Origin: a virus
Lineage: Duplodnaviria; Caudoviricetes
Virus record (IMG/VR): IMGVR_UViG_3300017913_001710
Coordinates: 1,219 to 65,218 of that record
Reading direction: 5' to 3' (one strand)
Length of the DNA stretch: 64,000 nucleotides
The position numbers and the translations under genes are program-made. Below are positions 3,694-64,000 of the stretch, in pieces (positions within the stretch are counted from its first letter, which is position 1; every line of letters begins with the position of its first letter). The notes under the pieces are model-generated. The model saw only the letters and a list, made by a program, of their open reading frames with translations, had not been told where the DNA came from and made no database searches.

Positions 3694-3701
3694 TATCTTT
3701 G
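3694..3701 (+). promoter_or_regulatory. Bacteroidota-type -7 promoter element (TATCTTTG)
   Basis: TAnnTTTG 22 nt before ORF 3724. Confidence 0.6.
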
Positions 3702-3723
3702 CTACAACTAATATAGACCTATT

Positions 3724-4023
3724 ATGGCAGCAAGACTAGACAAATCTAAGATGGCATGTAACAGTCCACGTAAGAGTCCAAACCCCAAGAAAAAGAAGGT
3801 GGTTAAGGCTTGCTCTGGGGGTCAAGAAAAAATAATTCACTACGGAGCTTCAGGATATGGACACAACTATTCTGATGCTGCACGTAAGTCATTCAAAGCC
3901 AGACACAAATGTGGAGAGGCTAAGAATAAGTTGTCTGCTCGATACTGGGCATGCAAAGATCTTTGGGCTGGTAAAGGAGGCTCAACTAAATCATCACCAA
4001 AAAGCAAAAAAGGAAAATACTAA
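3724..4023 (+). CDS. Small Lys-rich basic protein
   Basis: 99 aa, very basic, IIHYGASGY...KSFKARHKC...SARYWAC. Confidence 0.7.
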   Translation: MAARLDKSKMACNSPRKSPNPKKKKVVKACSGGQEKIIHYGASGYGHNYSDAARKSFKARHKCGEAKNKLSARYWACKDLWAGKGGSTKSSPKSKKGKY

Positions 4024-4238
4024 TGGCAAAGAAAGAAAGAACAGCACGCATTCCAGTGATGGACAAACGCTCACAGAACCAACCACAACCTGCTGAGGTG
4101 TATGAATCTTACAACGTAAAGAATAGTACGATTGATATGCTATCTCAGATTGCACCTAAGAAGAAGTTGACAAAAGATGTAGAGCTTTACAATCCAAAGA
4201 CTAAGAAGAGTAAAATGATCTATAAACCTGGATACTAA
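4023..4238 (+). CDS. Small basic hypothetical protein
   Basis: TAATG stop/start coupling on both sides. Confidence 0.55.
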   Translation: MAKKERTARIPVMDKRSQNQPQPAEVYESYNVKNSTIDMLSQIAPKKKLTKDVELYNPKTKKSKMIYKPGY

Positions 4239-4414
4239 TGATTAAGGGATTTAAAAATCACAAAGGTCTTGGGGACACGGTAGAAGCTGTGACCCGTGTG
4301 ACAGGGATCAAGGGTGTTGTAGACTTCGCAGCAAAGAAGGCAAAAAAAGATTGTGGATGTCAGAGCAGAAAAAAAACATTAAACGAATTGTTTCCGTATG
4401 GCAACAAAAAGTAA
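4238..4414 (+). CDS. Small protein with DCGC motif (58 aa, not in ORF track)
   Basis: Hand translation MIKGFKNHKGLGDTVEAVTRVTGIKGVVDFAAKKAKKDCGCQSRKKTLNELFPYGNKK; TAATG coupling. Confidence 0.65.
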   Translation: MIKGFKNHKGLGDTVEAVTRVTGIKGVVDFAAKKAKKDCGCQSRKKTLNELFPYGNKK

Positions 4415-4568
4415 AACGAAAGCGAATAGAGGTAACAAGATCTGTCCAGCTGGTATTGCTTGGGCTAAGCGTACCTTTGATCGGTATCCCAGCGCTTATG
4501 CTAATATGGCTGCATCAAAGTATTGTAAAGATCCTAACTACGCTAAAGGCTCTAAAAAGAAAAAGTAA
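4398..4568 (+). CDS. Small basic protein (56 aa, not in ORF track)
   Basis: Hand translation MATKSKTKANRGNKICPAGIAWAKRTFDRYPSAYANMAASKYCKDPNYAKGSKKKK. Confidence 0.65.
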   Translation: MATKSKTKANRGNKICPAGIAWAKRTFDRYPSAYANMAASKYCKDPNYAKGSKKKK

Positions 4569-4570
4569 GT

Positions 4571-4888
4571 ATGCCTAGTATAGATATAAACAACGATGGA
4601 AAAGCTGACTTCAGCATAAACATAACACAAATCATTACGGTTGTAACCTTGATCGTGTCTATGGCTGGTAGTTACTATAGTCTCAAGGGAAGGCTTGATG
4701 CTATGGAACTAAAGGTTCAGCAAGCTATGGAGATGCCAAAACAAGATATTAGCATGAAAGACATTGATGCTATGCAGCGTGAGATAGACCTTAAGATTGA
4801 TAAGGTGGCAATACAGGCTTCTGAAAACATGGACGAAATAAAGAGTGTCGCAAGGGAAATGCGAACACAGTACAAAAGAAACCGATAA
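4571..4888 (+). CDS. Membrane-anchored coiled-coil protein
   Basis: Hydrophobic segment IITVVTLIVSMAGSYY followed by a helical region. Confidence 0.6.
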   Translation: MPSIDINNDGKADFSINITQIITVVTLIVSMAGSYYSLKGRLDAMELKVQQAMEMPKQDISMKDIDAMQREIDLKIDKVAIQASENMDEIKSVAREMRTQYKRNR

Positions 4889-5130
4889 TGGGTGAACTTA
4901 AAAAATGGCGTGATGAGAAATGGGTTAGAATATCTACCAGTGGTAAGATCATGGGCGAGTGCGGTACAAGCAAGGATAAGAAAAATCCAGACCGTTGCCT
5001 TCCTCTCTCAAAAGCACGTTCTCTTTCCCAAGCCGAAAGAGCCAAGACAGCTAGAAAGAAAAAGTCTGAAGGGGGAAAGAAGAAACAGTTTGTCTCAAAC
5101 ACAAGAAAAGCAAAAGTAAAACGCAAGTAA
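4888..5130 (+). CDS. Small basic protein (LKKW..EKWV...RCLP..KA pattern)
   Basis: 80 aa, Lys/Arg-rich, TAATG coupling. Confidence 0.65.
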   Translation: MGELKKWRDEKWVRISTSGKIMGECGTSKDKKNPDRCLPLSKARSLSQAERAKTARKKKSEGGKKKQFVSNTRKAKVKRK

Positions 5131-5131
5131 T

Positions 5132-5302
5132 ATGGAAACGATTTTTATTTTGATCACGATTGCAGCAGTGTCTTGGATTGGATACAAAGGATACAAGATG
5201 CTATCAGAAGACCCTGTAGTAGAAAAGAAGCCAAAGAAGAAGGGTGGTGCATCAAGTACCTCTGAGGCAGTTACAGGTGAGAAAATCAAACAAGCAAAGT
5301 AG
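5132..5302 (+). CDS. Small single-TM protein (56 aa, not in track)
   Basis: METIFILITIAAVSWIGYKGYK... then a basic tail; fills the gap between genes. Confidence 0.5.
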   Translation: METIFILITIAAVSWIGYKGYKMLSEDPVVEKKPKKKGGASSTSEAVTGEKIKQAK

Positions 5303-5448
5303 TGGAAGATTTGAAGATATACGGATTAAACATAGCAGCTATAACAGGCGCATCAATCAGTGAGATCAATCCGATCTTGTCTACTCTAGTGTTGTCTGCA
5401 ACGTTATTCTACACTCTTATACAGATATACGAAAAGCTAAAGAAATGA
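5302..5448 (+). CDS. Small hydrophobic protein (48 aa), possible lysis accessory
   Basis: GTG start; MEDLKIYGLNIAAITGASISEINPILSTLVLSATLFYTLIQIYEKLKK; ATGA overlap with endolysin. Confidence 0.5.
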   Translation: MEDLKIYGLNIAAITGASISEINPILSTLVLSATLFYTLIQIYEKLKK

Positions 5449-5795
5449 AATACTTTACTAACGAAGGCGATTTTAAAGGACAGATGGACAAGATGGATCC
5501 AAAGCTTTTATCTATGCTAGACGAGCTTAGAGAGGAGTACGGAAAGGCTATTGTCCTAACGTCACACTACAGGTCACCAGATCATCCTATAGAAGCAAAG
5601 AAGGACAAGCCTGGAGAGCACACTTATGGAGCTGCTGTTGACATTGCTTGCGTTGGAGGAGAGAATACATTCAATCTAGTGGCAGCAGCAATCAAGGTTG
5701 GATTTAGACGTATAGGTATTTCAAGAAAGAATAACTTTGTTCATGTAGGTATCGGATATCCTGATGCTCCTGACACAACAATATGGACGTACTAG
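5445..5795 (+). CDS. Endolysin, peptidase M15-like Zn peptidase
   Basis: TSHYRS...GEHTYGAAVDI...FVHVG (HxxxxxxD...H zinc ligands). Confidence 0.85.
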   Translation: MKYFTNEGDFKGQMDKMDPKLLSMLDELREEYGKAIVLTSHYRSPDHPIEAKKDKPGEHTYGAAVDIACVGGENTFNLVAAAIKVGFRRIGISRKNNFVHVGIGYPDAPDTTIWTY

Positions 5796-5796
5796 G

Positions 5797-6213
5797 ATGG
5801 CAAAAAAAAAGTTCAAAGACACGAAAGTGGGACAGTTCCTACTTCAAAAAATCCCAGGGGTCGTAGGCGCACTAGCTGAAGAGACACCCATACCAGCAGT
5901 CATTGAGGCTATCATTGGTGGATCAGAACTTCCTGCCGAAGACAAAGAGGTTGCCTTGAAAAAACTAGACCTTGAAAGAGCAGAGATGGATGGTATAACC
6001 AGACGTTGGGTTGCAGATGCAAGATCAGGCTCTTGGCTAGCTTCAAATGTACGTCCACTTACATTAGTTTTTTTAACGGTTGCTTTTGTAGTTGGATGGG
6101 GTTTGCAACTATCTGAGTTAGATGTAGTTAAAGAGCTGTTAACGATTGTCTTCATAGGCTACTTCGGAAGTCGTGGGGCAGAAAAGATAATGGGTAACAA
6201 CAAACACAAGTAA
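5797..6213 (+). CDS. Holin (GTA-type 3TM-like)
   Basis: RWVAD..SGSWL..NVRPL then TM segments and GYFGSRGAEK; follows the endolysin. ATG at 5797 preferred over track start 5764. Confidence 0.7.
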   Translation: MAKKKFKDTKVGQFLLQKIPGVVGALAEETPIPAVIEAIIGGSELPAEDKEVALKKLDLERAEMDGITRRWVADARSGSWLASNVRPLTLVFLTVAFVVGWGLQLSELDVVKELLTIVFIGYFGSRGAEKIMGNNKHK

Positions 6214-6215
6214 GA

Positions 6216-7205
6216 TTGGCTAGGATTAAAACATATAATCAAGACGTCAAAGTCACTAAGGATGATAAGTTAATTGGAACTAACACCAATACTGGTGCTA
6301 CTCAAAACTTTTCATTAAGCAGCATTGTGGACTTCATAAATAATGAGGGACAGATAAAAATGCCTGATGGAGCTTTGTTTCGTTTTCAAACTTTTGATCC
6401 TGATCATACTGATCCTGTAGGTATACTTAATCTTACCAGAGATGAAAACACTGTAGAGACAAACTACTCAGCAGTAACAACTGTTTATGTCTCCAAAAAG
6501 ATGCAGGGTGGAGACACTGTAGGCGATTATATCGATGCTTTTAACAACGGTACTATTAAAATATCAGAGCAAGGTAATCTTAATAGCTTTGGAATATTCC
6601 TTGTTTCAGATGTTGTTGATGATGACAATGACAAGTACACAAAACTCACCTTAACACATGACAAGTCAGTTGGCACATTGTATCCAGGAAAGTATTACTA
6701 CGTGTCTTTTATGTTGGACGAGGGTGATATTAATATTGGAAGCTACAGTGTCACAGATTTACAGGGAGTAGAGGACGCTGGGTCTGGTAGGATCATGACA
6801 GTTGAAGAGCGTGGTCGTTTAGCTAACATAGAGGATAACGCAACGCAAGATCAATCTGATGAGGAGATTGAAACAGCTTACAACAATCGAGTTAGTCAAG
6901 CTACAGCAGACGAACTTACTAATGGTACAGAGACTGAGGTAAGAAGATTCTCTCCTGCCAACGTAAAGAGTATGATTGACGAACACGCTAACAGTGTTCA
7001 GTATGTACACAATCAATCTTTAGCCTCAACGACATGGACAATAAACCACAACCTAGGAAAGTATCCTGCCGTGAGCATTAAGTTCTCAAGCAGTGATCAA
7101 GTCTACTCTAACGTAGGCGCTTTTGCTGGGGTAACATATACAAACGAAAACTCAATAACTATTAACCTTGCAGCCGCAGAAAGTGGCTATGCATACCTAA
7201 ACTAA
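6216..7205 (+). CDS. Virion structural protein (tail/baseplate associated)
   Basis: C-terminal YVHNQ...TWTINHNLGKYPAV beta-rich module; first gene of the fibre block. Confidence 0.55.
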   Translation: MARIKTYNQDVKVTKDDKLIGTNTNTGATQNFSLSSIVDFINNEGQIKMPDGALFRFQTFDPDHTDPVGILNLTRDENTVETNYSAVTTVYVSKKMQGGDTVGDYIDAFNNGTIKISEQGNLNSFGIFLVSDVVDDDNDKYTKLTLTHDKSVGTLYPGKYYYVSFMLDEGDINIGSYSVTDLQGVEDAGSGRIMTVEERGRLANIEDNATQDQSDEEIETAYNNRVSQATADELTNGTETEVRRFSPANVKSMIDEHANSVQYVHNQSLASTTWTINHNLGKYPAVSIKFSSSDQVYSNVGAFAGVTYTNENSITINLAAAESGYAYLN

Positions 7206-41447: not shown

Positions 41448-44400
41448 ATGAATCAAGACAACAAGAAAAAGCCTGTAGATCCTTCAGCAGCTGGAAGTCC
41501 AGACAATGAAGCTTTAGGTCTATCTTATGGTGTATTCGTAGATGGAGGATACACAGGGAGTCATTCTGACTTTTTTCAGTTAATGTGTACAAATCAAGAG
41601 GCTCTTGAGACAGCATATGATGATGCACTTGGTATGGGTTATGAGGATTCTATAGAAGACTTCAAAGCCTTATTGGGTGTTACTCAGGCGCAGAACAATG
41701 TACTTAATGATGAAGATTTAAAAAAAAAAGTTACAGCTTCCGACTCGGAGTTTGGACCATCACCATTTCCAGATAAAGATGATTCTATATTCGCCAAGGA
41801 AAGAGCGATACAAGAAAAGTATTTAGAAGAATACGAAAAACAAAGGCAAGAAGATGCTATAAAAGCATTGAAGGAAGCCAGACCTGATCTAGATTTTCCA
41901 ACAACAGCTGAAGAGTTCTACGCAAAGAAAGGAGAAACTCCTCCTATGCTTGAAGCTACAACAGAGCAGAAGGATATTAAGGACATATCCGCTGATGAAA
42001 TGAAGCAGCGAGAGAAGAGAGCTAAGAAACAAGCCGTCCCACTCGGTGAAGACGATGCTGGTAAGTCAATCCTAAATACGGTAAGTAATGCGGTAGGTCA
42101 GTTAGCTTTGACTGACGACTGGATGAAGTACACCCTTGGAGTTATGCTACGTGATGGTGGTGAATACAACATTGAGCCATTAAGTAAACTAGGCATTAAG
42201 TGGACAGCAGAAGCAGAGAGTGAAATTGATAGAGTTCAATCTTACAGAAAAGCTGTTGCAAACTTTACAGATCAAGAAAGCATATCAATGAAACTTGCTG
42301 CGTTTGCAGATGGAGTTGCTGGTGTTGGTGTTAGTGCCGCACAAAACTACCTTACAATGGGCACTGGTCTAGCTGCATCTATGGTTGGGCAAAGCATAAA
42401 GACTTACAACGAAGAACGTGCACGTTCAAAAGGCATCACTGTAGATGAGCTATATGAGGAAGGTGGTTATGATATAGCTGTTCCAGCTCTTATTGGTGGA
42501 GTGAGTTATTCATTTGAAAAGTTAGGACTTGTGACCATGGGAAGGTCATTTAACTTAATGAACGCAAGTGCAAAGCAAGTTGTATCAAGATTCTTAACTT
42601 CCACAACCACAGAAGGAGGAACCGAAGGTCTTCAGTTTTTATCTGAAAAAATTAACGAATACTTGGGAGCCAACCCTGATTCAGTCAAGACGTTGGAGAT
42701 GATGCTTACACCAACAGGAGCTAATATTCCAATGGCTGTATCTAGAGATCCTGAGTTTGTGAAATTTTTATCAAGTCTTCCACTTGATCCAATGTTCCGT
42801 GAGTCTATATATAAAGGCATGGCTGGGGGTGGATTTGCCAGCGGAACTGGTATACTTACGTCAAGATATCTTAAGACCGCAGAGGAGTTATCGGTTCAAG
42901 ACGAAGCTATGAAGGGTCTTGAAAGAACTGCTGACATGAAGAACAAGAGGTCCTTAACTGACGAAGAGTCGCAGGCTGTAGAAACAGTAGAAGGACAGTA
43001 CTTCTCTAAGATAAAAGACGCTCAACTTAAAGTTGAGGCTATTGATAAAGAATTATCTGACACTGATCGTTCACGTGTTAACGAACTAGGTCAGAGCTTG
43101 CAGTCTTACAACAACCAACTTTTTGAGGTTCTTAATTCACCGAACATGAATGAGGAGCAAAAGAATATGGTCATCAAAGCTCTTGAAGAAAAAGCTAACG
43201 AGGCAAAGGCTGAGATAAAAACTATACGTGAAGCTGCGGAGAAAAGGTTAGCAGACAAACCCATCGCAGATCAAGAACAAACTACAAGCCAAGATCAAAC
43301 TACAGAGCAGGAAGTAGAAGCAGAAGTAGAAGCAGAAGTAGACGACTCTGTAGACTCTGATAAGGTTGATGGCACAATCAGAGAGCAATTCCAAGACTTA
43401 GATGATGTTGCTGATGCTGATCAAGTGGCGATACTAGATGCTGCTGATCAGGTAAAAACAATTATGCAAGATCAGGATCCTGATCTAAATATTGTGGTAC
43501 ACAAAACATCAGAATCGTACCAAGCGGCTACTGGCAAGAAAGGTAGAGGGGCTTACAATCCCAACCAGAAGACAATACATATTGATCTAACTAAGACCAA
43601 TGACAAGTCAACGATATACCACGAAACATTTCACGCCTTACTATTTAGCAAGTTAAAAAGCGATCCTGCGATACAACAAAAAACTAAAGAGCTTGTTGAG
43701 CTTATAAAGCCAAATCTAGATCCAGGCGTTCAAAATAAATTAGACGAGTTCACCTCCATGTATGACGACAATTTCCAAAGTGAGGAAGCTTTGACTCAAT
43801 TGTTTACATACCTAACTTCAGGAGAAGCAAACCTAGATAAGACTACCATTCAGAAGATTCAACAATGGATCAATGAAGTAGCAGATATGTTAGGTCTAAG
43901 TGCAATGAAGTTTACTGGAGAAAATATACAACGTGCTCAGGTTATTGATCAACTGAATGCGTTAGCTCAGTCGTTTCAAAAGGGTGAAGCCGTCACAGCA
44001 GAGCAAGCGCAGTTCTTAGGATCTGAAAAAGCTACTGAGACTGAAAGCCTGATTAGAGAGGAAAAGGTTGGTGAGTTTGAAAAGAACTACTACGAGGACA
44101 CTGATAAGTTTCAGAAGCTTATTGATGACAACAAAGTGGTGTTTGTCGGTAACGCAAAAGAATACATTGGTCCTGACAAGGAGGTTGTCGTCCACCAACC
44201 AGATAATATGTTTGTTGGAGACATATCACACAAGGGTAAGAAAATTATCAAGGGCGAAGGAGGTATATACTACATCTTGAATGCAGGAAACGTTTGGGCA
44301 TCTTCACCAAAAGCAACACGTACTTTAGTGAAGATGATTAATGAAGCGAGAGCAAAATCCAAGGATGGTAAAGCATACATGTTATTTGCTAGAGGTGCTC

Positions 44401-47400
44401 AAGATAAAATGATCAGCTCAACCATGGGTGTAAAAGCTAGCATGAAAGTGCTAGAGACTATGGTGGATGAAGGCATGATACCTAGATCTGATTTTAGATC
44501 ATCATTGAATAGAGTCGGAAAGAAGTATGGTATTGATTTTAGTGGCGCAGATTCTGCAATCGCTATTAAGCAAGATATAGAGACAAAGTTTATGAAGGCA
44601 GATGCTTCAACCTTTGAGAAGCGTGGCACATTCTTTAGTGATCTAATAGCCGACCTTGGTAATACAAGTGATTTTGTAAACACTCCAGAGAATAAGAAGA
44701 GAATACAGAAGTTCTTAGGATCAAAGAAACGTATATCGTTTTCAAAAGCAGGGATCAGAAATGCTATTGGAGATATGCTAACCGAAAGAATACTTCAAGA
44801 CCTACCAAACTCTCATGTATATGCAGCAGTAGAAGTTGATCAAGATGTTGAAGCGGTAGAGGATCCAACTCACGAAAGCTACAGCTCTGTGATAAAGCAG
44901 AAAGATGGTAGTAGACCACGATTGGTTGTCTTCAATCAAAGAGAAAGCGTAGATAAAGTATTAAAAACAAAAGACGGAGTAACAGCCGAGGAAGCTGGTA
45001 AGTCTTTTAGAGGTACGATAGGGATGGCTCAAGCTGGTATAGGTAGAGCTAGAATACGTGAACAAAAGGAAGACCTAGATCAAGCTCAAGGATACTTCGA
45101 ACAAAACCAGAAGGTTGCTGAGGATATGCAGAAGCGTGACAATGATCTAAATGATACATTTGTTAGACGTGTATGGAGAGCTATTTTTGATAGACAAGCA
45201 GACGTTAAAAGACTCTTCAAAGGAGACCCCGATAGAAGAGTTTACAATGCGTTAGTTACAGCGGCAGGTGCTGGAGCAAAAGCCAAGTACGACTTTGAGC
45301 AGGTAAGAAAAAACATATTTGATGGTTTGTCTGAGGCACAACAAAATGCACTGAACCAAATCATTGCTTTGAGGCGTGTGGTTGAAATCAATAGAACTAG
45401 ACAAGATAAAAGAGAGAGAGCTCAAGAGTTAGTTGATCAGTACGGTTCAGAGTTCACGCAAGATAAAGCTGACGAGATCATGGAAGATGACTTGCAGTTT
45501 TATTACGATTATGACAGCGACACTGGCAAGTACACCATTAGAGAGTTTAACGACTACGTAAGAAAGAACGAAAAAGGTGAGATCAACAAAGATTCTGCAC
45601 AAGGTGCTCTTGAACAGTTAAGAAGACTTGATCCAGAAGCATATGATGATTACATAAAGAGATCAGACTTTTATTTTGATGCATACAAAGATATGCTCAA
45701 GACTTTATATGATTCAGGGAGAATATCGAGAGGTTCTTACATGTACTTCAGAGATGTAAACTACTCCCCTATTCGTCTCGTCAAGACGGTTATAAAAGAC
45801 AATGAATCTTTATTCAAGGACAAGCTTGATCAGCAGGCTGGTGTGTATGGTATGACGGCTAAAGACATTCAGGCACTGACCGACAAGAATGAGAATGCTA
45901 TCATTGATGATGCTGAGTATATGCTTGCTATGTCTATGGCTGCTACACAAAGAAAAGCATTCAACAACAGGTTGATGCAGAAGGTGGTTGAGGAAGTAAG
46001 AAAAAACCCAGAAGCATTCGAGCAGTTTGTAACAGAGGAATCTGAAGGCTCAAAAGAAAAAGGGTTTGTTCCCATCAGATACTTTGATAAAGGAGAGCCA
46101 AAGCTGATTTACATAAAAGAAGCTATAGCTGCTCAACTTCTTGATATAAGAACACCTGGTTTGTTGACTAGTGAGCAACTACAAAACATAAGTAAGTTCA
46201 CAGGCGTATCTCTACTTAAAGCGTTTGCAACAGGAGCAAACCCTGCGTTTATTATTGGCAACACTGCAATGGATATCACAAATGTTGCTATGTTTACTGA
46301 CGTGTATAGCAAGGTCAAACCAGTAGCAGTTGCTCAGGTTAGTTTTGACTACATAAAGAATGCTATTGGAAAGATAGTGTCAGATGCAAAAGGCGAAGGA
46401 AACTTTAAAAAGATATACGAAGATTTTCTCGCTCATGGAGGAGGCATGGACTTCTTATCCCAGCAAGGGATAGACGCATACAAATCATTGAAAGCACCTA
46501 GCATACTTGGATACAAGATTGCACCAGCTAAGCGCCTAGTAAACGCAATGGCTTACCTAGGAACCATGTCAGAGCAGGCTGTAAGAGTATCTGTTTATCA
46601 GAAGGTACTTAACGACAAAATAAAAGAGTATCAAAAACTGAATGGACTTCGACCAAAAGGAGAAGCACTAAGGGATATTAAGCTTGCTGCTGCCGCAAAG
46701 TCAAGAGAGACTATAGATTTTAGTCAAGGAGGAAGATATGCGAAAGATGCTGATCACGCGTTTGCATATTTAAATGCGGCAGTTCAGGGTGTAAGAAGAC
46801 CTATAGATTTTGCAAGAGAAAATCCAGGGCAGTTCACTTCTAGTGTTGCTCAGGCTGCTGGGTTAGCATTCTTAGCGCCTATAGCTAACGCTTTGATACT
46901 TGGATTATCTGGATACGATGAAGAGGAAAGAAGAAAGATAATAAAGAAAATGCGTGAAGGATCTTCAAGGTATGAGAAGGCAAACTACATGCAGATCATC
47001 GACCCTAGAAGCCCGTTAGATAAGAATGGAAATGTAAACTACTATCGTGTTAGAAAACTGCCTGGACTAAATGTAATAACAACTCCAGCAACAGAGATGT
47101 ATTATAGTATGATTACTGGCGACAAGTATGAATGGGCATCTACAGGGCAATCAATAAAGAACACCTTGCCTTTTTCTGGAGGGTTTGTAGACGTGTTAGG
47201 AGGTAACCCACTCATTTCTTCTGGCTTTGCTTTAGGCAACATAGATTTATTTAGAGGTCAAGACGTTGTTAGACTTAACCCACGTAAACCAATTGACAAA
47301 ATTGCTGAAGTTGATGAGGATACAGCCGCACTATACAGGTATATTGCTGAGGGGTGGGATGCAACAGCAGGTAAATTAGGATTTGATACATTCAGTTCAC

Positions 47401-48017
47401 CAAAGAGAAATCAAGCAGCTATGGAGAAGTTGATCACAAACCCCTCAACGAACCCACTAGTTGGACTTCTTTATGCTGGTCCTGAAGCTATATATCAAAT
47501 GAAGAACAATGGTTTTGATACAAAATTTCTAATGACTCCAGTGACGGAACTTGCGAAAGGATTTGAGAAGCGACTTTACAGAACAACAAATCCAAACATA
47601 AAAATGTATGAACAGCAAGATAAGATTGAAGATAAAATCAAAGCGATCAACAGTAAAGAATATACTCTAAATAAAAAGGTGACAAAAATGATCCGTGATG
47701 TTTATGAAGGAAAGGATATGAAAAGTCTACCATCAGAAATCACTAGGTATATAAAAGAGAACTCAGACAAGCAAGACCATAAGAGGTTGATCAAGAAGTA
47801 TACACAAAGAGTAAAGAGCATGGGGGTTCCTGCTGAGTTTTTTAACATTGCTCATGCAGCATCAGATAAGGAAAGAGCTCTTCATATACAAGAAATATAT
47901 GGCGGCTCCTTAGACTCTGAAGAGAGACGTGAGCTAGAGAGATATATCAAAAGAATCTCTGGGAGAAGCATACCTAAGAAGACTTATGTTGAGTACAAGA
48001 AACTTATCAGTGAATAA
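41448..48017 (+). CDS. Large internal virion/ejection protein (2189 aa) with HExxH motif
   Basis: Last + strand gene; GAYNP...IHIDL...STIYHETFHALL zincin-like segment; hydrophobic helical C-terminal region resembling large polyvalent proteins. Confidence 0.7.
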   Translation: MNQDNKKKPVDPSAAGSPDNEALGLSYGVFVDGGYTGSHSDFFQLMCTNQEALETAYDDALGMGYEDSIEDFKALLGVTQAQNNVLNDEDLKKKVTASDSEFGPSPFPDKDDSIFAKERAIQEKYLEEYEKQRQEDAIKALKEARPDLDFPTTAEEFYAKKGETPPMLEATTEQKDIKDISADEMKQREKRAKKQAVPLGEDDAGKSILNTVSNAVGQLALTDDWMKYTLGVMLRDGGEYNIEPLSKLGIKWTAEAESEIDRVQSYRKAVANFTDQESISMKLAAFADGVAGVGVSAAQNYLTMGTGLAASMVGQSIKTYNEERARSKGITVDELYEEGGYDIAVPALIGGVSYSFEKLGLVTMGRSFNLMNASAKQVVSRFLTSTTTEGGTEGLQFLSEKINEYLGANPDSVKTLEMMLTPTGANIPMAVSRDPEFVKFLSSLPLDPMFRESIYKGMAGGGFASGTGILTSRYLKTAEELSVQDEAMKGLERTADMKNKRSLTDEESQAVETVEGQYFSKIKDAQLKVEAIDKELSDTDRSRVNELGQSLQSYNNQLFEVLNSPNMNEEQKNMVIKALEEKANEAKAEIKTIREAAEKRLADKPIADQEQTTSQDQTTEQEVEAEVEAEVDDSVDSDKVDGTIREQFQDLDDVADADQVAILDAADQVKTIMQDQDPDLNIVVHKTSESYQAATGKKGRGAYNPNQKTIHIDLTKTNDKSTIYHETFHALLFSKLKSDPAIQQKTKELVELIKPNLDPGVQNKLDEFTSMYDDNFQSEEALTQLFTYLTSGEANLDKTTIQKIQQWINEVADMLGLSAMKFTGENIQRAQVIDQLNALAQSFQKGEAVTAEQAQFLGSEKATETESLIREEKVGEFEKNYYEDTDKFQKLIDDNKVVFVGNAKEYIGPDKEVVVHQPDNMFVGDISHKGKKIIKGEGGIYYILNAGNVWASSPKATRTLVKMINEARAKSKDGKAYMLFARGAQDKMISSTMGVKASMKVLETMVDEGMIPRSDFRSSLNRVGKKYGIDFSGADSAIAIKQDIETKFMKADASTFEKRGTFFSDLIADLGNTSDFVNTPENKKRIQKFLGSKKRISFSKAGIRNAIGDMLTERILQDLPNSHVYAAVEVDQDVEAVEDPTHESYSSVIKQKDGSRPRLVVFNQRESVDKVLKTKDGVTAEEAGKSFRGTIGMAQAGIGRARIREQKEDLDQAQGYFEQNQKVAEDMQKRDNDLNDTFVRRVWRAIFDRQADVKRLFKGDPDRRVYNALVTAAGAGAKAKYDFEQVRKNIFDGLSEAQQNALNQIIALRRVVEINRTRQDKRERAQELVDQYGSEFTQDKADEIMEDDLQFYYDYDSDTGKYTIREFNDYVRKNEKGEINKDSAQGALEQLRRLDPEAYDDYIKRSDFYFDAYKDMLKTLYDSGRISRGSYMYFRDVNYSPIRLVKTVIKDNESLFKDKLDQQAGVYGMTAKDIQALTDKNENAIIDDAEYMLAMSMAATQRKAFNNRLMQKVVEEVRKNPEAFEQFVTEESEGSKEKGFVPIRYFDKGEPKLIYIKEAIAAQLLDIRTPGLLTSEQLQNISKFTGVSLLKAFATGANPAFIIGNTAMDITNVAMFTDVYSKVKPVAVAQVSFDYIKNAIGKIVSDAKGEGNFKKIYEDFLAHGGGMDFLSQQGIDAYKSLKAPSILGYKIAPAKRLVNAMAYLGTMSEQAVRVSVYQKVLNDKIKEYQKLNGLRPKGEALRDIKLAAAAKSRETIDFSQGGRYAKDADHAFAYLNAAVQGVRRPIDFARENPGQFTSSVAQAAGLAFLAPIANALILGLSGYDEEERRKIIKKMREGSSRYEKANYMQIIDPRSPLDKNGNVNYYRVRKLPGLNVITTPATEMYYSMITGDKYEWASTGQSIKNTLPFSGGFVDVLGGNPLISSGFALGNIDLFRGQDVVRLNPRKPIDKIAEVDEDTAALYRYIAEGWDATAGKLGFDTFSSPKRNQAAMEKLITNPSTNPLVGLLYAGPEAIYQMKNNGFDTKFLMTPVTELAKGFEKRLYRTTNPNIKMYEQQDKIEDKIKAINSKEYTLNKKVTKMIRDVYEGKDMKSLPSEITRYIKENSDKQDHKRLIKKYTQRVKSMGVPAEFFNIAHAASDKERALHIQEIYGGSLDSEERRELERYIKRISGRSIPKKTYVEYKKLISE

Positions 48018-58114: not shown

Positions 58115-58245
58115 AGGATAACATGTATTAAGTTTTGCCTACTCTGTTCCAGCTTTTCGGCTTCCGCTGTAGAAGGTGAGGGTTCAGGGGGAGACCCTCG
58201 GTGTAGCATTACTAAATCTATTAACTATAATGAAAACCCCCCTGA

Positions 58246-58968: not shown

Positions 58969-59405
58969 AATCCATTTGCCTCCTCCAAGAACGTAATGAA
59001 CCGCTTCAGATTCTCCACGTCAAACACGTAGCTTTGCGTGTCGTCTTCGTACTGCTCCACAAGGGTGTGCAACCTATCACGGTCACGTAAAAGTTCCTTG
59101 AGACCGTCGCAAATAACCTTAGACGTGTGTCTGTCAATAGTTCTTCCATCGTTGAAGCTTAGAGTGGCTTCACGGTTTTTCGTGTAGGCACCCTTCTCGA
59201 CCAATACAGCGCAAATGAGGTGCGCTAGAGGTCTCCAGTACCAAACGTTGTTTCTGAAGTAGTACCCCTTGTTACTGTCGTAGAATTTTTCCATTTCAGT
59301 AAAATACTTGTCCCACTTCGGGCTTTTAAATTCCACTTGACCTTTTGGTCTGCGTGGTTTTCTTGTGTTGAGAACTGGTTTTAGTCCATAGATGTCGAAA
59401 CCCAT
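58956..59405 (-). CDS. Early hypothetical protein
   Basis: Start MGFDIYG lies 26 nt after the repeat motif; GYYFRNNVWYWRPL. Confidence 0.65.
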   Translation of the reverse strand: MGFDIYGLKPVLNTRKPRRPKGQVEFKSPKWDKYFTEMEKFYDSNKGYYFRNNVWYWRPLAHLICAVLVEKGAYTKNREATLSFNDGRTIDRHTSKVICDGLKELLRDRDRLHTLVEQYEDDTQSYVFDVENLKRFITFLEEANGFRVC

Positions 59406-59419
59406 AGTATAGATATTTA

Positions 59420-59451
59420 AGATTAGTATATGAAGCAGGGGCAATGCCCCT
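59420..59451 (-). promoter_or_regulatory. Early intergenic element copy 1 (hairpin + GCTTC/ATATACTAATCT)
   Basis: + strand AGATTAGTATATGAAGC at 59420-59436; stem AGGGGC/GCCCCT. Confidence 0.85.
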
Positions 59452-59455
59452 AAAA

Positions 59456-59806
59456 TCAACAAGAGTTCGGATAGTATTTATCCTCGTCATTGTTGTTCGC
59501 CCACTCACACGCTTTGTCGTTGACGTTGTAGTGCGTTTCTGATACATAGTAACCGTAGTCACGCCACCATCTGAGTTCCCTTTCAAGCGTGGATTCCTCC
59601 TTTGTTTTGCAGTTCATTATAACTTCCTCAAACAAATCGTGTAATTGGTTGTAATAGTCCTGCGCTTGCTCTGTTAGCACGTTAACTCCTGTTTCGTCTA
59701 CACGATACATTTTGTTATCGTCCCCATAAGATTGCTTGAATAATCCCCTAAGGCTTTTTGTAGTTAGTTCATCAGCCAGTTCTGTAACGTTGATTGTTGC
59801 ATTCAT
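59456..59806 (-). CDS. Early hypothetical protein
   Basis: Start MNATIN lies 26 nt after the motif. Confidence 0.6.
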   Translation of the reverse strand: MNATINVTELADELTTKSLRGLFKQSYGDDNKMYRVDETGVNVLTEQAQDYYNQLHDLFEEVIMNCKTKEESTLERELRWWRDYGYYVSETHYNVNDKACEWANNNDEDKYYPNSC

Positions 59807-59820
59807 TTTAGATATATTTA

Positions 59821-59857
59821 AGATTAGTATATGAAGCAGGGAGCTTAAGGTGTCCCC
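59821..59857 (-). promoter_or_regulatory. Early intergenic element copy 2
   Basis: Exact 17-mer at 59821-59837; imperfect GGGA/TCCC stem. Confidence 0.85.
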
Positions 59858-59871
59858 AAACCTTTCAAGCA

Positions 59872-60357
59872 TTAAAGCTTGTACAGTATTAAATAACCAT
59901 CGTTACAATATCCATCGGTATGACCTTCTGTATATAACTCGTCTAGCCACCCCGTAAAGGTGTTTTCGTCGGCTTCTAAATTGCTTAACAGTTCGCTGTC
60001 TTTGCTTAGGTCATTAGTTATTCCTAAAAACTCTTCATGAGTCAGTAGTTTAACATCGTTAGTGTCGGGTTGGATTAGTAATCCATAGTTTCCTTTTACT
60101 GGCATAAAGTGTATAGCCCCGTGGTCTTTTCCGATTTCGGCATGTATGGCATTCGTTGTTACGCCTTCGTGGTAGGTTACTTTAACCTCTTCACTTCCTA
60201 GTGATGGCAAGTATCTCCTAGCAAATTGTGCTCTCGCTAATTCTAAGGCGTTGTAACGTGCGTTGTCCTCGGTCATGTCAGTATATGTAACATCCTCGAT
60301 GATTCCGCTATCTGAGTAGCCCTCACCGTTCCAAGTGTCAATAATAATGTATCGCAT
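59872..60357 (-). CDS. Early hypothetical protein
   Basis: 161 aa; ATG 25 nt after the motif. Confidence 0.6.
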   Translation of the reverse strand: MRYIIIDTWNGEGYSDSGIIEDVTYTDMTEDNARYNALELARAQFARRYLPSLGSEEVKVTYHEGVTTNAIHAEIGKDHGAIHFMPVKGNYGLLIQPDTNDVKLLTHEEFLGITNDLSKDSELLSNLEADENTFTGWLDELYTEGHTDGYCNDGYLILYKL

Positions 60358-60370
60358 AATATATAAGTTA

Positions 60371-60411
60371 AGATTAGTATATGAAGCCTAGTTAGAATTG
60401 CTCCTAACTAG
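60371..60411 (-). promoter_or_regulatory. Early intergenic element copy 3
   Basis: Exact 17-mer at 60371-60387; 8-bp stem CTAGTTAG/CTAACTAG. Confidence 0.85.
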
Positions 60412-60442
60412 ATGTTAACTAGCCTATGCCAGTCGGTTTGTT

Positions 60443-60613
60443 TTAGAACACTTTCTCCCCTTTTTTTGAGAACGAGAAACTCTCTATCTCGTCACATTCT
60501 AACTGCTCCATGCATTCCCAATATATTTTTGTCCTTTTGGGATAGGTGCAGTACTTCAGGTAGTGTTTTTGTTTTCCTCTCATGTCAACCGTAGTGAATA
60601 CGTACAAGTGCAT
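60443..60613 (-). CDS. Early small protein (56 aa)
   Basis: Start MHLYVF lies 26 nt after the motif. Confidence 0.55.
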   Translation of the reverse strand: MHLYVFTTVDMRGKQKHYLKYCTYPKRTKIYWECMEQLECDEIESFSFSKKGEKVF

Positions 60614-60627
60614 AGTTTTTAGTTTTA

Positions 60628-60665
60628 AGATTAGTACATGAAGCAAGGGATTTTTACCGATCCCT
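60628..60665 (-). promoter_or_regulatory. Early intergenic element copy 4
   Basis: AGATTAGTACATGAAGC at 60628-60644; stem AGGGAT/ATCCCT. Confidence 0.85.
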
Positions 60666-60677
60666 AGGCGGTGTTTT

Positions 60678-60968
60678 CTACCAACAATGTTCCATCGACC
60701 AATGTGGGTTTTTAGGATTGAAGTCCTCATCTAGCTTGACCTCCCTGATTGATATGCGAATATCATCATCACAGTTTGACCTGTATAAATCATCATACTC
60801 TTCGGGGTCTTCATAGAACCTGATGGTATCCTTGTACTGTAAAGTACGTTTCTTCTCAACGTCCACAAGTGAACGGAAGTGTTGTTTTGCTTTTACTTCA
60901 CTAGCATAGACTTGAAACTGATTCTCGCTGTGTGAATGCATCATGTAGGTAACAACGTAAACTTTCAT
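60678..60968 (-). CDS. Early hypothetical protein
   Basis: 96 aa; ATG 26 nt after the motif. Confidence 0.6.
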   Translation of the reverse strand: MKVYVVTYMMHSHSENQFQVYASEVKAKQHFRSLVDVEKKRTLQYKDTIRFYEDPEEYDDLYRSNCDDDIRISIREVKLDEDFNPKNPHWSMEHCW

Positions 60969-60982
60969 AATAGATATAATTT

Positions 60983-61019
60983 AGATTAGTATATGAAGCA
61001 TGGAGACTTACGTCCCCAT
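60983..61019 (-). promoter_or_regulatory. Early intergenic element copy 5
   Basis: Exact 17-mer at 60983-60999; 8-bp stem with 1 mismatch and a GUAA (GNRA) loop on the RNA. Confidence 0.85.
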
Positions 61020-61274
61020 TCGAGTCCATGCATTGTTCTTGCAGAACTCACCAATGGCATCACCATTAGCCTTGATTTTCTCGTAGTTCTCTACGTGATT
61101 CATCACCGTGTCGATAGCCTCCTGCTCATCGGCTAGGTTGATGTGTGGAGTTGAGAATCCACCAAAAAGTTTGATGGTGTACCCGAACTCACTTGTCTTC
61201 TTGCCAAACGGTGTGTACGTGCCGTTTTTGTACTCGAACATCTCATTCTTTGTGTCTTGCATTTTTGGTTGCAT
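61008..61274 (-). CDS. Early hypothetical protein
   Basis: 88 aa; ATG 26 nt after the motif. Confidence 0.6.
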   Translation of the reverse strand: MQPKMQDTKNEMFEYKNGTYTPFGKKTSEFGYTIKLFGGFSTPHINLADEQEAIDTVMNHVENYEKIKANGDAIGEFCKNNAWTRMGT

Positions 61275-61288
61275 AATAGATATAGTTT

Positions 61289-61325
61289 AGATTAATATGT
61301 GAAGCAAGGGAGGGTTTCCCCTCCC
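61289..61325 (-). promoter_or_regulatory. Early intergenic element copy 6
   Basis: AGATTAATATGTGAAGC at 61289-61305; RNA hairpin GGGAGGG-GAAA-CCCUCCC. Confidence 0.85.
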
Positions 61326-61331
61326 ATACTG

Positions 61332-62273
61332 TTACCCTAGGATGTAGGCACTAGCTTTGGTAGCTTGTTGCATTGCGAAGAAGCATTGCTTTGGCTTGTC
61401 CTTGAATCGCTTGACCCATCCTTTGATGTAGGCGATGCTGTTCTGTTCTGTATCCTTCGGATTCAGTCCCACAAAGCCTTCTAGATACATAGAACTAATC
61501 TCTGCGACTAGTTCCTCTTGTGCATAGGTGTCATCCCCCCACTTGTTGACGTCTAGAAGTGTACTTCTATTCAGTCTAGACTCGTGACCAGTTGAGTGTG
61601 CCAGTTCGTGGAAGAGTGTCTTGTAGTAGCTGTCGCTGTCTACGAACGTCTCAATCTTTGGCATGTTCACTACGTCATCACTTGGTCTGTAGTAGGCTTG
61701 GTCTACCTTATGCACTAGCTTGAGGTTTCCGTCTCTGTCGATGTACGACTGGACGAGGTTCTCAGCTACTTCAATCGGTTGGTTATCGTTGCCGTTGTCC
61801 TCGATTTCTTCGAGTGGCTCAATGCCTTCCGTTTGCCCTATATTAAACACCTTGTAGTACATCCATGTGAATGTCTCACGGTATCGGGCAATCTCCTCTC
61901 CTTTGTCGTTTGTAATCGTCTCGTTGAGGTTGACTTCTTTGATTTCTGCAGGTTTCAAGTACTTGCCAGTCTTCATGTCCTGATAGCCTATTTTCATTAG
62001 GTAGACATCAGTTGATTTACTGCCTTTTATGATTGTTCCTCCAAGGCTTTTTACTTGCTTGAAGGTCAACCATTGGTTGTACTGGAATCCGTTTGACATC
62101 ATCTCGAAGTTCAGGAAGAAGACGTTGAAACCGTTGTAGTAACGTCCCGTGACACGGTTGCGAGGTGCATTCGCTTGTCCTGATTTCCATGGCTTAAACC
62201 ACTTCATCCCTTTCTTGCTGATTCCCTCGATAACTGCATCGTTCACCTTTTTGATAATTGCATCTTGATTCAT
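61332..62273 (-). CDS. ardC: ArdC-like antirestriction/ssDNA-binding protein with zincin domain
   Basis: KPW...PRNRVTGRYYNGFN...QWLTFKQ...GG.IIKG N-domain; YYRPSDDVVNMP...YYKTLFHELAHSTGH..RL.R...YAQEELVAE C-domain. Confidence 0.85.
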   Translation of the reverse strand: MNQDAIIKKVNDAVIEGISKKGMKWFKPWKSGQANAPRNRVTGRYYNGFNVFFLNFEMMSNGFQYNQWLTFKQVKSLGGTIIKGSKSTDVYLMKIGYQDMKTGKYLKPAEIKEVNLNETITNDKGEEIARYRETFTWMYYKVFNIGQTEGIEPLEEIEDNGNDNQPIEVAENLVQSYIDRDGNLKLVHKVDQAYYRPSDDVVNMPKIETFVDSDSYYKTLFHELAHSTGHESRLNRSTLLDVNKWGDDTYAQEELVAEISSMYLEGFVGLNPKDTEQNSIAYIKGWVKRFKDKPKQCFFAMQQATKASAYILG

Positions 62274-62286
62274 AATATAGATATTT

Positions 62287-62321
62287 AGATTAGTATATGA
62301 AGCTGGGGAGACATGCTCCCC
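62287..62321 (-). promoter_or_regulatory. Early intergenic element copy 7
   Basis: Exact 17-mer at 62287-62303; stem GGGGAG/CTCCCC. Confidence 0.85.
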
Positions 62322-62327
62322 GTTGTA

Positions 62328-62579
62328 CTAGATAATGTAGCGCATTCTGTTGTGTAGGAACCAGTAAGCCTCCTGCACTCCATCAGCTGAACCTAAGTCT
62401 ACTTTGCACTCTTCGTGTATTGCTCCTCTCTTCCATCCAGTCATGTAGAATCTGAAAGATATTTGATTCACGTGAGGCGAGTAGTCAACGAATAATTGAG
62501 CGTTGCTTATCCTATCTCTGTCGGCATTGTCAATGATTGCTTGGCTAACGAGTTCCATAAGTTCTTTAATAGTTTTCAT
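62328..62579 (-). CDS. Early hypothetical protein
   Basis: 83 aa; ATG 28 nt after the motif. Confidence 0.6.
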   Translation of the reverse strand: MKTIKELMELVSQAIIDNADRDRISNAQLFVDYSPHVNQISFRFYMTGWKRGAIHEECKVDLGSADGVQEAYWFLHNRMRYII

Positions 62580-62594
62580 AATAGATATAAATTA

Positions 62595-62631
62595 AGATTA
62601 GTAATGTGAAGCAAGGGGTCGTTGTGACCCC
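62595..62631 (-). promoter_or_regulatory. Early intergenic element copy 8
   Basis: AGATTAGTAATGTGAAGC at 62595-62612; stem GGGGTC/GACCCC. Confidence 0.85.
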
Positions 62632-62638
62632 GTTGTAC

Positions 62639-62770
62639 TTATCGACTCAAAACCTCCCGTACTTCAGTGCTGAGATTCTTGCACACATCCAAGAAGGTGT
62701 CCTCTGTGATGTTGTCGTTTAAAAGTTCTTGTGAAGCTAAGTTGATTAGAAATAATACATCAGATTGCAT
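62639..62770 (-). CDS. First early ORF (43 aa, not in track)
   Basis: MQSDVLFLINLASQELLNDNITEDTFLDVCKNLSTEVREVLSR; ATG 28 nt after motif copy 9. Confidence 0.55.
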   Translation of the reverse strand: MQSDVLFLINLASQELLNDNITEDTFLDVCKNLSTEVREVLSR

Positions 62771-62785
62771 AATAATAGATTTTTG

Positions 62786-62825
62786 TGATTAGTAATGTGA
62801 AGCGAGGTGTACCGTAGCACACCTC
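62786..62825 (-). promoter_or_regulatory. Early intergenic element copy 9 (cis substrate of the hammerhead)
   Basis: TGATTAGTAATGTGAAGC at 62786-62803; 7-bp stem GAGGTGT/ACACCTC. Confidence 0.85.
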
Positions 62826-62916
62826 AGTTTTGCTTTTCGACCTATCAGGTACTACCTAACGGTAGCCCATGGTTTTATCTCCCATGGCTCATCAGACATA
62901 CTTGTAATCTTATCTA
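62787..62916 (-). ncRNA. Hammerhead ribozyme (type I topology, atypical branched stem II)
   Basis: Arm AGAUU-ACA-AGUAUGU (62910-62896), CUGAUGA (62895-62889), G62888:C62839 closing pair, GAAA (62838-62835), AGC. AAGC pairs GCUU and the arm pairs the sequence after the UUC triplet. Confidence 0.7.
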
Positions 62917-63078
62917 ATTTCGTTTGACCTACCATCCTGTCTCGGTTGGCTCCACCTACGGTGGGACTCGCTGTTACCTTGTCGTGCTACGCCTGTTTTA
63001 CTACCACATCGTAGTGTGGCACTGGGTAGCCTGCCGAAGGGCTGAGTGAGTGGGTCAGTATTTCAAAGAGCGATGCCC

Positions 63079-63111
63079 CAAAGATATAACAATGAGTTCG
63101 AATCTACCAAA
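63079..63111 (-). promoter_or_regulatory. Leftward (early) Bacteroidota-type promoter
   Basis: -33 TTTG (63111-63108), 21-nt spacer, -7 TATCTTTG (63086-63079); predicted TSS about 63072. Confidence 0.7.
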
Positions 63112-63613
63112 TATTTTTTAAACTTTTTTTAGAATCCTAGGTTTTACGGGGGCTCACAAGGCATATTTTTTTTTCGCAGGGTTGACTACAACTGGCAAAA
63201 ACACCACAAACACTAGCTGAGCCCTTGCCACCATTGACTTAACCTGCATTTCTTAACATTTCTTTAGCTGTTACTGGACGCAATGATACGACATGGAACG
63301 TTTAGTGTATTGTAGAATATAAGAGGTGGTTATGACGTGCCTCTTAGCATGAGCTAGTAGGACACCGTCCCCCATGGAGGGGGTAAACGTCAAAAGTTTT
63401 GCTGTGGGTCCAGTATGGTGGTGGGGGGTGGGGTTTAGGATTGCGTTTTTCTGTAGCGGTACGTCGTGCGGAAATACATACTAACCCACTACTTCTATAT
63501 ATCTAACGTGGCACAGAAATACGACATTAGCTGTACTAGTAATTAGGTGTACAGTTACTTGTCATGTTTTTACGCCACATATGTTAGTTGTTGGTGGAAT
63601 GAAATATGATGTC

Positions 63614-63621
63614 TATCTTTG
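63614..63621 (+). promoter_or_regulatory. Rightward Bacteroidota-type -7 element (TATCTTTG)
   Basis: Diverges from the early promoter; TTG about 20 nt upstream. Confidence 0.6.
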
Positions 63622-63643
63622 TAGTCTCATAGGAACTTCGGTT

Positions 63644-63700
63644 GAACCTCTAGACTGCATGTATGTAAACGCACTCGGATCTAGGGGTTCTTCTTTTTTT
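63644..63700 (+). terminator. Hairpin plus U-tract shortly after the rightward promoter (attenuator or sRNA end)
   Basis: GAACCTCTAGA/TCTAGGGGTTC 11-bp stem (one G-U), then TTCTTTTTTT. Confidence 0.5.
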
Positions 63701-63738
63701 GGCATCTAGGGGGTCTATATTTTCATTATCTTTACAAA

Positions 63739-63885
63739 ATGGAAATAAGGATAATTATACAACCACCCTATGCGTTCTTAGTAGGATTCGAGGCAGTAAA
63801 CAGAATAGACCAGGATGATAGTATTGTGGTTGATGGAGTGGCATTTCACTTCCTATTAATAAGTGTAGAGTTTAGATGGAACTAA
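63739..63885 (+). CDS. Small hypothetical protein (48 aa, not in track)
   Basis: MEIRIIIQPPYAFLVGFEAVNRIDQDDSIVVDGVAFHFLLISVEFRWN. Confidence 0.45.
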   Translation: MEIRIIIQPPYAFLVGFEAVNRIDQDDSIVVDGVAFHFLLISVEFRWN

Positions 63886-64000
63886 AGACTAGGACTAGTT
63901 GCTTTCTTAATGAGTTTTACTTTGATCAGTTTCTTGTGTGTTTTAAAAGCTACAAGTACTATGGCAACACTAGACAGTTTCGGGTGTATAACTACGACAA
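63876..64000 (+). CDS. Hypothetical protein, 3'-truncated by window edge
   Basis: MELKTRTSCFLNEFYFDQFLVCFKSYKYYGNTRQFRVYNYD..., open to the end of the window. Confidence 0.45.
   Translation, partial: MELKTRTSCFLNEFYFDQFLVCFKSYKYYGNTRQFRVYNYD

Follow-up and report, generated by a model that had tools for sequence, protein, structure and literature searches.

A single hammerhead-like core and an array of substrate-only sites in the early operon of a phage: a candidate for ribozyme-driven processing of early mRNA

Introduction

Natural small self-cleaving ribozymes are known as single-turnover elements that act in cis, and, to our knowledge, no natural RNA enzyme other than RNase P is well established to act in trans on many substrates. 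The search in genomes for ribozymes that cleave in trans was noted as open in a review (PMC6765202). Here, we discuss a stretch of 64,000 nucleotides (nt) of a tailed phage (the window; bases 1219-65218 of IMG/VR record IMGVR_UViG_3300017913_001710), in which the leader of the early operon contains one hammerhead-like core and a repeat that matches the arms of this core stands before each of the first nine early genes. An earlier, sequence-only reading of the window had proposed that this core drives the processing of the early polycistronic mRNA. Positions are those of the window, and the leader and early genes are on the minus strand.

Among the described systems, clustered complete cis hammerheads flank single genes, including ardA, in prophages (Perreault et al., 2011; PMC3088659). 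There, as here, hammerhead cleavage was proposed to split a phage polycistronic RNA into single-gene messages, and an anti-restriction gene is among the flanked genes, i.e., ardA in the prophages and an ArdC-like gene in the window. However, the prophages have a complete ribozyme at each site, whereas one core has to serve nine sites in the window (5-11 in its relatives), sites 2-9 of which consist of the substrate strand only. Furthermore, stem II is a three-hairpin domain here. A discontinuous hammerhead is present in the 3' untranslated regions (UTRs) of mammalian Clec2 genes (Martick et al., 2008, as cited in PMC6765202). As far as it is described in the citing review, its enzyme and substrate strands are likewise distant on one transcript, but it combines one enzyme with one substrate in a eukaryotic 3' UTR, whereas the phage has an array of substrates, on which the reaction would become intermolecular after the first cut.

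Trans-acting hammerheads of the I/III format are engineered, synthetic molecules with short arms and multiple turnover. They share with the phage array the position of both arms and stem II on the enzyme strand and of an NUH site on the substrate, but the array is natural. The early mRNA of phage T7 is processed by the RNase III of the host, and phage T4 has promoter-early stem-loop (PeSL) cassettes with sigma-70 promoters. These systems resemble the window in having one intergenic element per early gene, with monocistronic early mRNAs or modular cassettes as a result, but they depend on a host protein or on sigma-70 promoters, whereas the elements in the window match the arms of a ribozyme and contain no host promoter consensus. 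RNase P RNA, a natural trans-acting RNA enzyme with multiple turnover, has a cellular housekeeping function, recognizes the shape of tRNA, and leaves a 5' phosphate by hydrolysis. The RNA proposed here would also be a natural enzyme working in trans with multiple turnover, but its fold and chemistry are unrelated and its substrates would be recognized by base pairing. In a literature search, no publication was found that describes one natural core together with an array of substrate-only sites. The phage group offers a testable case of such an arrangement, with one core, 5-11 substrate-only sites and a pairing code that drifts between lineages with compensation.

The hammerhead-like core in the leader

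The leader has the layout of a type I hammerhead, in which the first repeat copy takes the role of the cis substrate. The 5' arm of the enzyme, i.e., its stem I strand (62896-62916), reads UAGAU-A-AGAUU, followed by an ACA bulge and AGUAUGU, and pairs with AUAUACU and AAUCU (plus AUCUA) of every repeat. Directly downstream are the core strand CUGAUGA (C3-A9; 62895-62889), an expanded stem II (62839-62888) and, as read from the sequence, GAAA (G12-A15.1; 62838-62835), so that the conserved nucleotides C3-U4-G5-A6-N7-G8-A9 and G12-A13-A14 are all present. The core strand has no differences in four relatives described below, L226, L055, L228, and L042. The stem III arm AGC (62832-62834) pairs, as AAGC, with GCUU at all nine sites, and an A-rich linker, AAAACU (62826-62831), separates it from the hairpin of copy 1. 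This geometry, and the occurrence of the nine repeats before the early genes, had been described in the sequence-only reading and are borne out by the coordinates, the repeat counts and the reading of the leader.

Stem II contains an insert of 50 nt. The G10.1-C11.1 pair is present, but it opens onto a junction of three hairpins, H1 (loop GAGAUAAAA), H2 and H3, instead of a helix. Folding of single sequences predicted this three-hairpin form separately in the window and in three relatives introduced below (L226, L055, and L228). The H1 loop, (A)GAGAYAAAA, is conserved among these expanded ribozymes, and the hairpins show compensatory changes, e.g., CCAUGG/CCAUGG vs. CCGUGG/CCACGG. The comparison is based on per-sequence folds and anchored counts, as the 3' half of the four expanded ribozymes was misaligned in the MAFFT alignment used for RNAalifold.

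When both strands of the window were searched with a descriptor built from the repeat consensus, with G.U pairs allowed, the only match was at 62902; of 2000 shuffled windows, 1 had a match. In the minus-strand early region upstream of gene 8, the CUGANGA at 62895 is the only one; the next ones are at 59775, within gene 8, and at 58609. The relatives, too, have one CUGANGA core per array.

The nine predicted substrate modules

Ahead of each of the first nine early genes is a module that comprises a GC-rich hairpin, which differs in sequence between the modules and lacks a U tract, the repeat GCUUC^AYRU(U)ACUAAUCU (^, predicted cut), and an AT-rich stretch leading to the ATG. GCTTC starts, with its first G, at 62803, 62612, 62303, 61305, 60999, 60644, 60387, 59837, and 59436. 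At three or fewer mismatches, the repeat has 8 matches, where 0.30 are expected, a number that was reached in none of the shuffles. The copies are numbered here from the leader, i.e., copy 1 is copy 9 of the sequence-only reading, which counts in reverse.

Module 1, the cis site (62787-62825), contains a hairpin (62825-62804) and GCUUC (62803-62799)^ACAUUACUAAUCA, with the predicted cut at 62799/62798 and an ATG at 62770 (43 amino acids). Its stem I has 7 base pairs (bp) and one bulged U, and the distal pairing is weakened. Module 2 (62595-62631) has a hairpin and UUGCUUC^ACAUUACUAAUCU, is predicted to be cut at 62608/62607, and precedes an ATG at 62579 (83 amino acids); like copy 1, it contains one additional U. 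Module 3 (62287-62321; cut 62299/62298) lies before the ATG at 62273 of the ArdC-like gene (313 amino acids). The next modules are module 4, with the variant ACAUAUU (61289-61325; cut 61301/61300; ATG 61274, 88 amino acids), module 5 (60983-61019; cut 60995/60994; ATG 60968, 96 amino acids), and module 6, with the variant AUGUACU (60628-60664; cut 60640/60639; ATG near 60612, 56 amino acids). They are followed by module 7 (60371-60411; cut 60383/60382; ATG 60357, 161 amino acids), module 8 (59821-59857; cut 59833/59832; ATG 59806, 116 amino acids), and module 9 (59420-59450; cut 59432/59431; ATG 59405, 149 amino acids). The cleavage triplet is UUC at 9/9 sites, and the predicted cuts are 25-28 nt ahead of the ATG.

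Most details of the repeats given in the sequence-only reading were reproduced, including these cut positions and their distance from the start codons, the identity of five copies (exact GCTTCATATACTAATCT), and the preservation of pairing by the substitutions in the others. The extension of stem III by one or two U:A pairs, however, which had been assigned to five copies, is found in about six. The suggestion that the sites nearest to the leader are the weakest-paired ones, which would favor release, holds only in part: a weakened distal stem I is seen in the cis copy of the window and of L228, whereas that of L226, L055, and L042 is not weakened.

Unconstrained cofolding of the enzyme with copies 3-9 resulted in the hammerhead secondary structure. 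A stricter test, demanding a hammerhead in the minimum-free-energy structure, was abandoned. It fails for L055 and L042, in which ViennaRNA pairs GAUG of the core with CGUC, and the same mispairing occurs in the cis fold of L042, although this ribozyme is recognized by Rfam (see below).

Even the cis copy reads as an enzyme, a linker of 4-16 nt, and a standard module. In the cis copy and at the trans sites alike, the hairpin directly abuts the 3' strand of stem III, which suggests that the hairpin of the module stacks on a short intermolecular stem III.

Arms and sites in related phages

Five lineages with 39 sites and four arm sets were compared: the window, L226, L055/L037 (together with L132), L042, and L228 plus L071. 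The last two were taken as one phage because they overlap by 123 identical bases. L042 was found among relatives of the primase-helicase, and L226 and L228 were found in metagenomes with a pattern for the expanded stem II.

A link to known ribozymes is provided by L042. At the same position, its leader reads AUAUAA-CUGAUGA-GUCC-AAACAA-GGAC-GAAACGU, followed by a linker, a hairpin and ACGUC^UUAUAU. This segment (L042:1130-1200) is a canonical type I hammerhead, which scores 40.6 bits with the Rfam model Hammerhead_1 against a threshold of 34. Unlike the three-hairpin form, its stem II is a plain helix of 4 bp (GUCC/GGAC). The substrate strand of this ribozyme is at the same time repeat copy 1, and four further identical modules of hairpin and ACGUCUUAUAUUAAUCUUAA are located before the next genes.

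In the L055 lineage, eight modules with ACGUC^AUAUACUAAUCUUAA are accompanied by one core with the arms AGUAUAU and ACGU. L226 is a mosaic relative of the window, with 72-91% identity, the same arms and 11 sites. Comparison of L226 (reverse complement, 3233-6964) with the window (62803-59436) showed that they differ by whole cassettes of hairpin, site and gene (11 vs. 9 modules), with 91% identity in the ArdC gene and 72-81% in other parts; an additional role of the shared 17-nt site could be to anchor recombination during the shuffling of cassettes. The arms in L228/L071 are GUUAAAU and AGGG, and its six sites read CCCUC^AUUUAACUAAUC. Three of these are variants, in two of which pairing is kept via G.U.

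Covariation between the arms and the repeats had been proposed as a check in the sequence-only reading, and the four arm sets of the five lineages indeed fit their own repeats. Stem III is formed by AAGC/GCUU, ACGU/ACGU or AGGG/CCCU, depending on the lineage, and the stem I arms of the enzymes are AGUAUGU, AGUAUAU, AUAUAA, and GUUAAAU. Of the 39 sites, 38 have a fully paired stem III, and all have 6 or more of the 7 pairs of stem I. Each enzyme pairs at 10-11 of 11 positions with its own sites, and at 5-10 with those of other lineages. U16.1 is invariant over the 39 sites, whereas position 17 is C in 37 cases, U in two and never G. The four nucleotides of stem III are constant within a genome (9/9, 11/11, 8/8, and 5/5), but differ between lineages, with the enzyme matching them. 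At the variant sites, changes are confined to positions that tolerate a G or U partner, or consist of one bulged U.

Searches beyond these lineages yielded little. The exact repeat motif gave, in viral contigs, single chance matches and the L055 lineage only, and a pattern of arm, core and site gave 60 matches, all by chance in coding sequence with the exception of L132. With ArdC, a single-protein search found nothing, and an alignment search found the contig of L042 and L223 only. L223, an ArdC-gene relative, has no array; by eye, it contains a compact, complete cis hammerhead-like element, which was not scored by Rfam at E<=1. Its predicted cut is ~32 nt before the ATG, a distance that was counted as the same spacing as in the window. 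The core pattern revealed no ribozyme on the full records of five close primase relatives, and no comparable intergenic modules were seen in the cultured Flavobacterium phage hattifnatt. In three primase relatives, the leader region has a tRNA-like sequence (GGTTCGATTCC T-arm) in place of an array (L025:985-1004; L021 and L086, ~854-1095).

A separate compact cis hammerhead, of type III, is located after the last substrate module in the L055 lineage (L055:4883-4937, corresponding to L132:5560-5614 and L037:3150-3204). It scores 45.4 bits with Hammerhead_3 (E=6e-7), under the threshold of 48.5 bits. This lineage joins a multi-site core with a classical cis ribozyme.

Proposed mechanism and alternative explanations

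The interpretation of the locus as a system for ribozyme-driven processing is supported by the L042 homolog that passes the Rfam threshold, by the arm sets, by the recurring branched stem II, and by the precedent for a stem II of 1 bp (PMC3088659). In the proposed mechanism, the host RNA polymerase would probably use the promoter-like site at 63110-63079 to transcribe the early operon in a leftward direction, starting from the end of the genome. A leader of ~270 nt would carry the type I enzyme strand with its three-hairpin stem II, and each of the first nine early genes would follow behind a substrate-only module of an arbitrary-sequence hairpin and GCUU-C^-AUAUACU-AAUCU. The 3' arm of the enzyme, AAGC, would bind GCUU, and the short helix would stack on the module's own hairpin, while the 5' arm would bind the 12-17 nt past the cleaved C. 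Cleavage of copy 1 in cis would free the leader as a small ribozyme RNA, and copies 2-9 would be cut in trans by this RNA or, when it is still tethered, in long-range cis. The products would be monocistronic mRNAs that begin with a 5'-OH and an AU-rich leader of 25-28 nt, unstructured and devoid of a Shine-Dalgarno sequence, and the 3' ends would be formed by a hairpin ending in a 2',3'-cyclic phosphate.

The anatomy of the sequences, the homology to a hammerhead recognized by Rfam, the covariation of arms and sites, and the presence of one core per array can be read directly from the genomes, while catalysis, turnover in trans and any benefit for mRNA stability or translation are inferred. 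Cleavage in cis at copy 1, followed by cleavage in trans or over a long range at the other copies, is probably what the array is for. The more specific proposal, that the freed leader of ~270 nt is a diffusible, multiple-turnover hammerhead endonuclease acting on all early mRNAs via base pairing and helix stacking on the modules of hairpin and 17 nt, has about an even chance of being correct. If it is, this leader would be the first natural small ribozyme found to work as a true trans-acting enzyme on many substrates, with an arm/site code that co-evolves genome-wide and an operon that new gene cassettes can enter merely by bearing the module. Confirmation of the mechanism would mean that one catalytic RNA can stand in for protein RNases or for per-gene ribozymes in a phage, would account for the hairpin-plus-motif cassettes ahead of the early genes in these marine phages, and would provide a natural design for programmable RNA cleavage, in which a stem III of 4 bp has a hairpin stacked on it, stem I is long and bulged, and stem II is expanded.

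Several observations weigh against processing by the core at all sites. Stem II is closed by one G:C pair only, which is atypical, and an extra U follows A9 in L055 and L228. A stem II of one or two bp has been documented in natural active hammerheads, with one natural active case having 1 bp (PMC3088659). No match to the hammerhead family RF00163 was found with Rfam, either in 59000-64000 at E<=10 or in the whole window at the gathering threshold, and the expanded cores of L132, L226, and L228 were not scored at E<=1 either. The absence of a match is attributed to the stem II insert, since the expanded homologs fail as well and L042 passes; covariance-model scans overlook hammerheads that carry large inserts in stem II. 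Arm binding is modest, with a ddG of -7.7 to -11.3 kcal/mol (shuffled sites, -5.7 +/- 2.2), and such a strength is compatible with the release of the product. In a duplexfold scan of the transcript with the 5' arm, the sites were not the strongest duplexes, a ranking that was judged uninformative on geometry, as GC-rich chance duplexes outdo the AU-rich arms. After the cis cut, the enzyme's own, tethered GCUUC product can keep the stem III arm occupied. Three lineages have sites that do not differ from one another, and covariation within the genome is absent there. Finally, the array is patchily distributed: it is lacking in L086, L021, and L025, the closest primase relatives, and L223 has the compact cis element instead.

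Of the alternatives, the one that survives best is that the hammerhead is real but cuts only copy 1, in cis, and that copies 2-9 are paralogous modules of hairpin and 5' UTR that spread with the cassettes and were retained, e.g., as a translation-initiation region, protein-binding site or recombination anchor. Copy 1 alone suffices for the Rfam match of L042, the difference between L226 and the window by whole module-bearing cassettes fits modular shuffling, and the copies in L055 and L042 are all identical, as expected after recent duplication or gene conversion. However, no homogenization among the copies is seen in the hairpin and the AT-rich spacer that border the sites, and the conserved block of each repeat stops where the complementarity to the enzyme stops. 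Together, these features speak for selection on pairing at each copy and against gene conversion. The block and the enzyme footprint coincide, also at the four stem III nucleotides, which are specific for the lineage yet fixed within the genome, and variant copies deviate only in ways that preserve pairing. Cleavage restricted to copy 1 is, in view of these features, unlikely.

A second alternative holds that the leader is an antisense regulator, the 5' arm of which tunes translation from the early 5' UTRs or recruits a host double-strand RNase, with no catalysis at copies 2-9. In line with such a regulator, the pairing of this arm comes to within ~8 nt of the start codon in most cases, and every cofold contains stem I. 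It leaves unexplained, however, the pairing of the GCUU/AAGC type beyond the invariant U-C, the absence of G at position 17, and the conservation of the catalytic core across lineages, and we regard it as improbable.

Still less credit can be given to the modules as stem-loop and promoter cassettes, similar to the T4-type PeSL, that are read by a host or phage polymerase and make each early gene its own transcription unit. The order of hairpin, conserved 17-20 nt, short AT-rich leader and gene resembles terminator-promoter cassettes, and a DYDSD motif in a 2189-residue virion protein could point to a phage polymerase. However, the hairpins have no U tracts, the Bacteroidota consensus of -33 TTG and -7 TAnnTTTG is absent from all repeats and present only once, upstream of the leader, and the DYDSD region resembles LPD38/ART-PolyVal polyvalent proteins and not a polymerase. 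Moreover, compensatory changes between the repeats and both arms flanking the core would have no explanation. A chance occurrence of CUGAUGA and GAAA around a repeat-complementary sequence could be considered, given 18 CUGAUGA over both strands of the window and the empty Rfam search, but is effectively refuted by the rarity of the descriptor match in shuffled windows and the recurrence of the layout, with compensated arms, in four other lineages.

Genome setting and the early operon

The 65,218-bp record has direct terminal repeats of 141 bp. Virion genes are on the plus strand up to ~48 kb, and the replication and early genes are on the minus strand, running leftward from the right genome end. 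The matches of the proteins suggest an affiliation with podophages of marine Flavobacteriia, such as Cellulophaga phi46:3, Maribacter Panino, and Flavobacterium Elemovirus. The region gave no blastn match to cultured phages. The product of the third early gene combines ArdC-N and MPTase-PolyVal domains and is anti-restriction-like; no informative family was found for the remaining eight of the first nine early genes. The early genes lack Shine-Dalgarno sequences, which is usual for Bacteroidota hosts.

A candidate promoter of the host (Bacteroidota) type, TTG-N21-TATCTTTG, is located at 63079-63110, ~180 nt upstream of the ribozyme core. It is the single match to TTG-N17-23-TAnnTTTG within the first 5 kb of the minus strand and also contains the single TAnnTTTG there (63086). 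The homology to L226 starts directly downstream of it, at 63072, and a function of the site as a promoter is inferred. The non-coding 5' part of the leader upstream of the ribozyme arms extends over 62921-63072, and the identity to L226 is 77% over 63072-62277. A motif, GTAGATT(AC), is kept 180-210 nt upstream of the core in the window (63106-63100), in L055 (position 478), and in L042 (~955). In the window, it sits within the spacer of the promoter-like site. A role as a mark of the transcript start or as part of a leader structure is conceivable.

The 2189-residue virion protein mentioned above is encoded on the plus strand (41448-48017). Its C-terminal half resembles LPD38/ART-PolyVal polyvalent injected proteins (Atlas score 0.96), the DYDSD motif is at residue 1354, and residues 554-587 weakly match the protein A B domain. 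A virion RNA polymerase was considered in this protein and rejected: no match to the crAss-like virion polymerase was obtained in PDB, and its Atlas neighbors are LPD38/ART-PolyVal proteins.

Directly downstream of the repeat array, a DUF805b RNA motif (Rfam RF02914) is present at 58136-58170 on the minus strand, with 51.2 bits vs. a threshold of 35.6. It is found at the same relative position in L042:4904-4939, L055:5463-5495, and L037:3733-3765, i.e., in three lineages including the window. The sole paper naming this motif deals with alignment software.

Two hammerhead-like motifs were noticed by eye in the early region of the Flavobacterium phage elemoE_6-9C (L230; NC_055854.1), on the minus strand near 18126 and 16355. 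They read CUGAAGA-GUCA..UGAC-GAAAC and CUGAUGA-GACU..AGUC-GAAAC, and both are below the Rfam gathering threshold. This cultured phage would, if the motifs are real, be handy for the study of hammerheads in the early operons of Flavobacterium phages.

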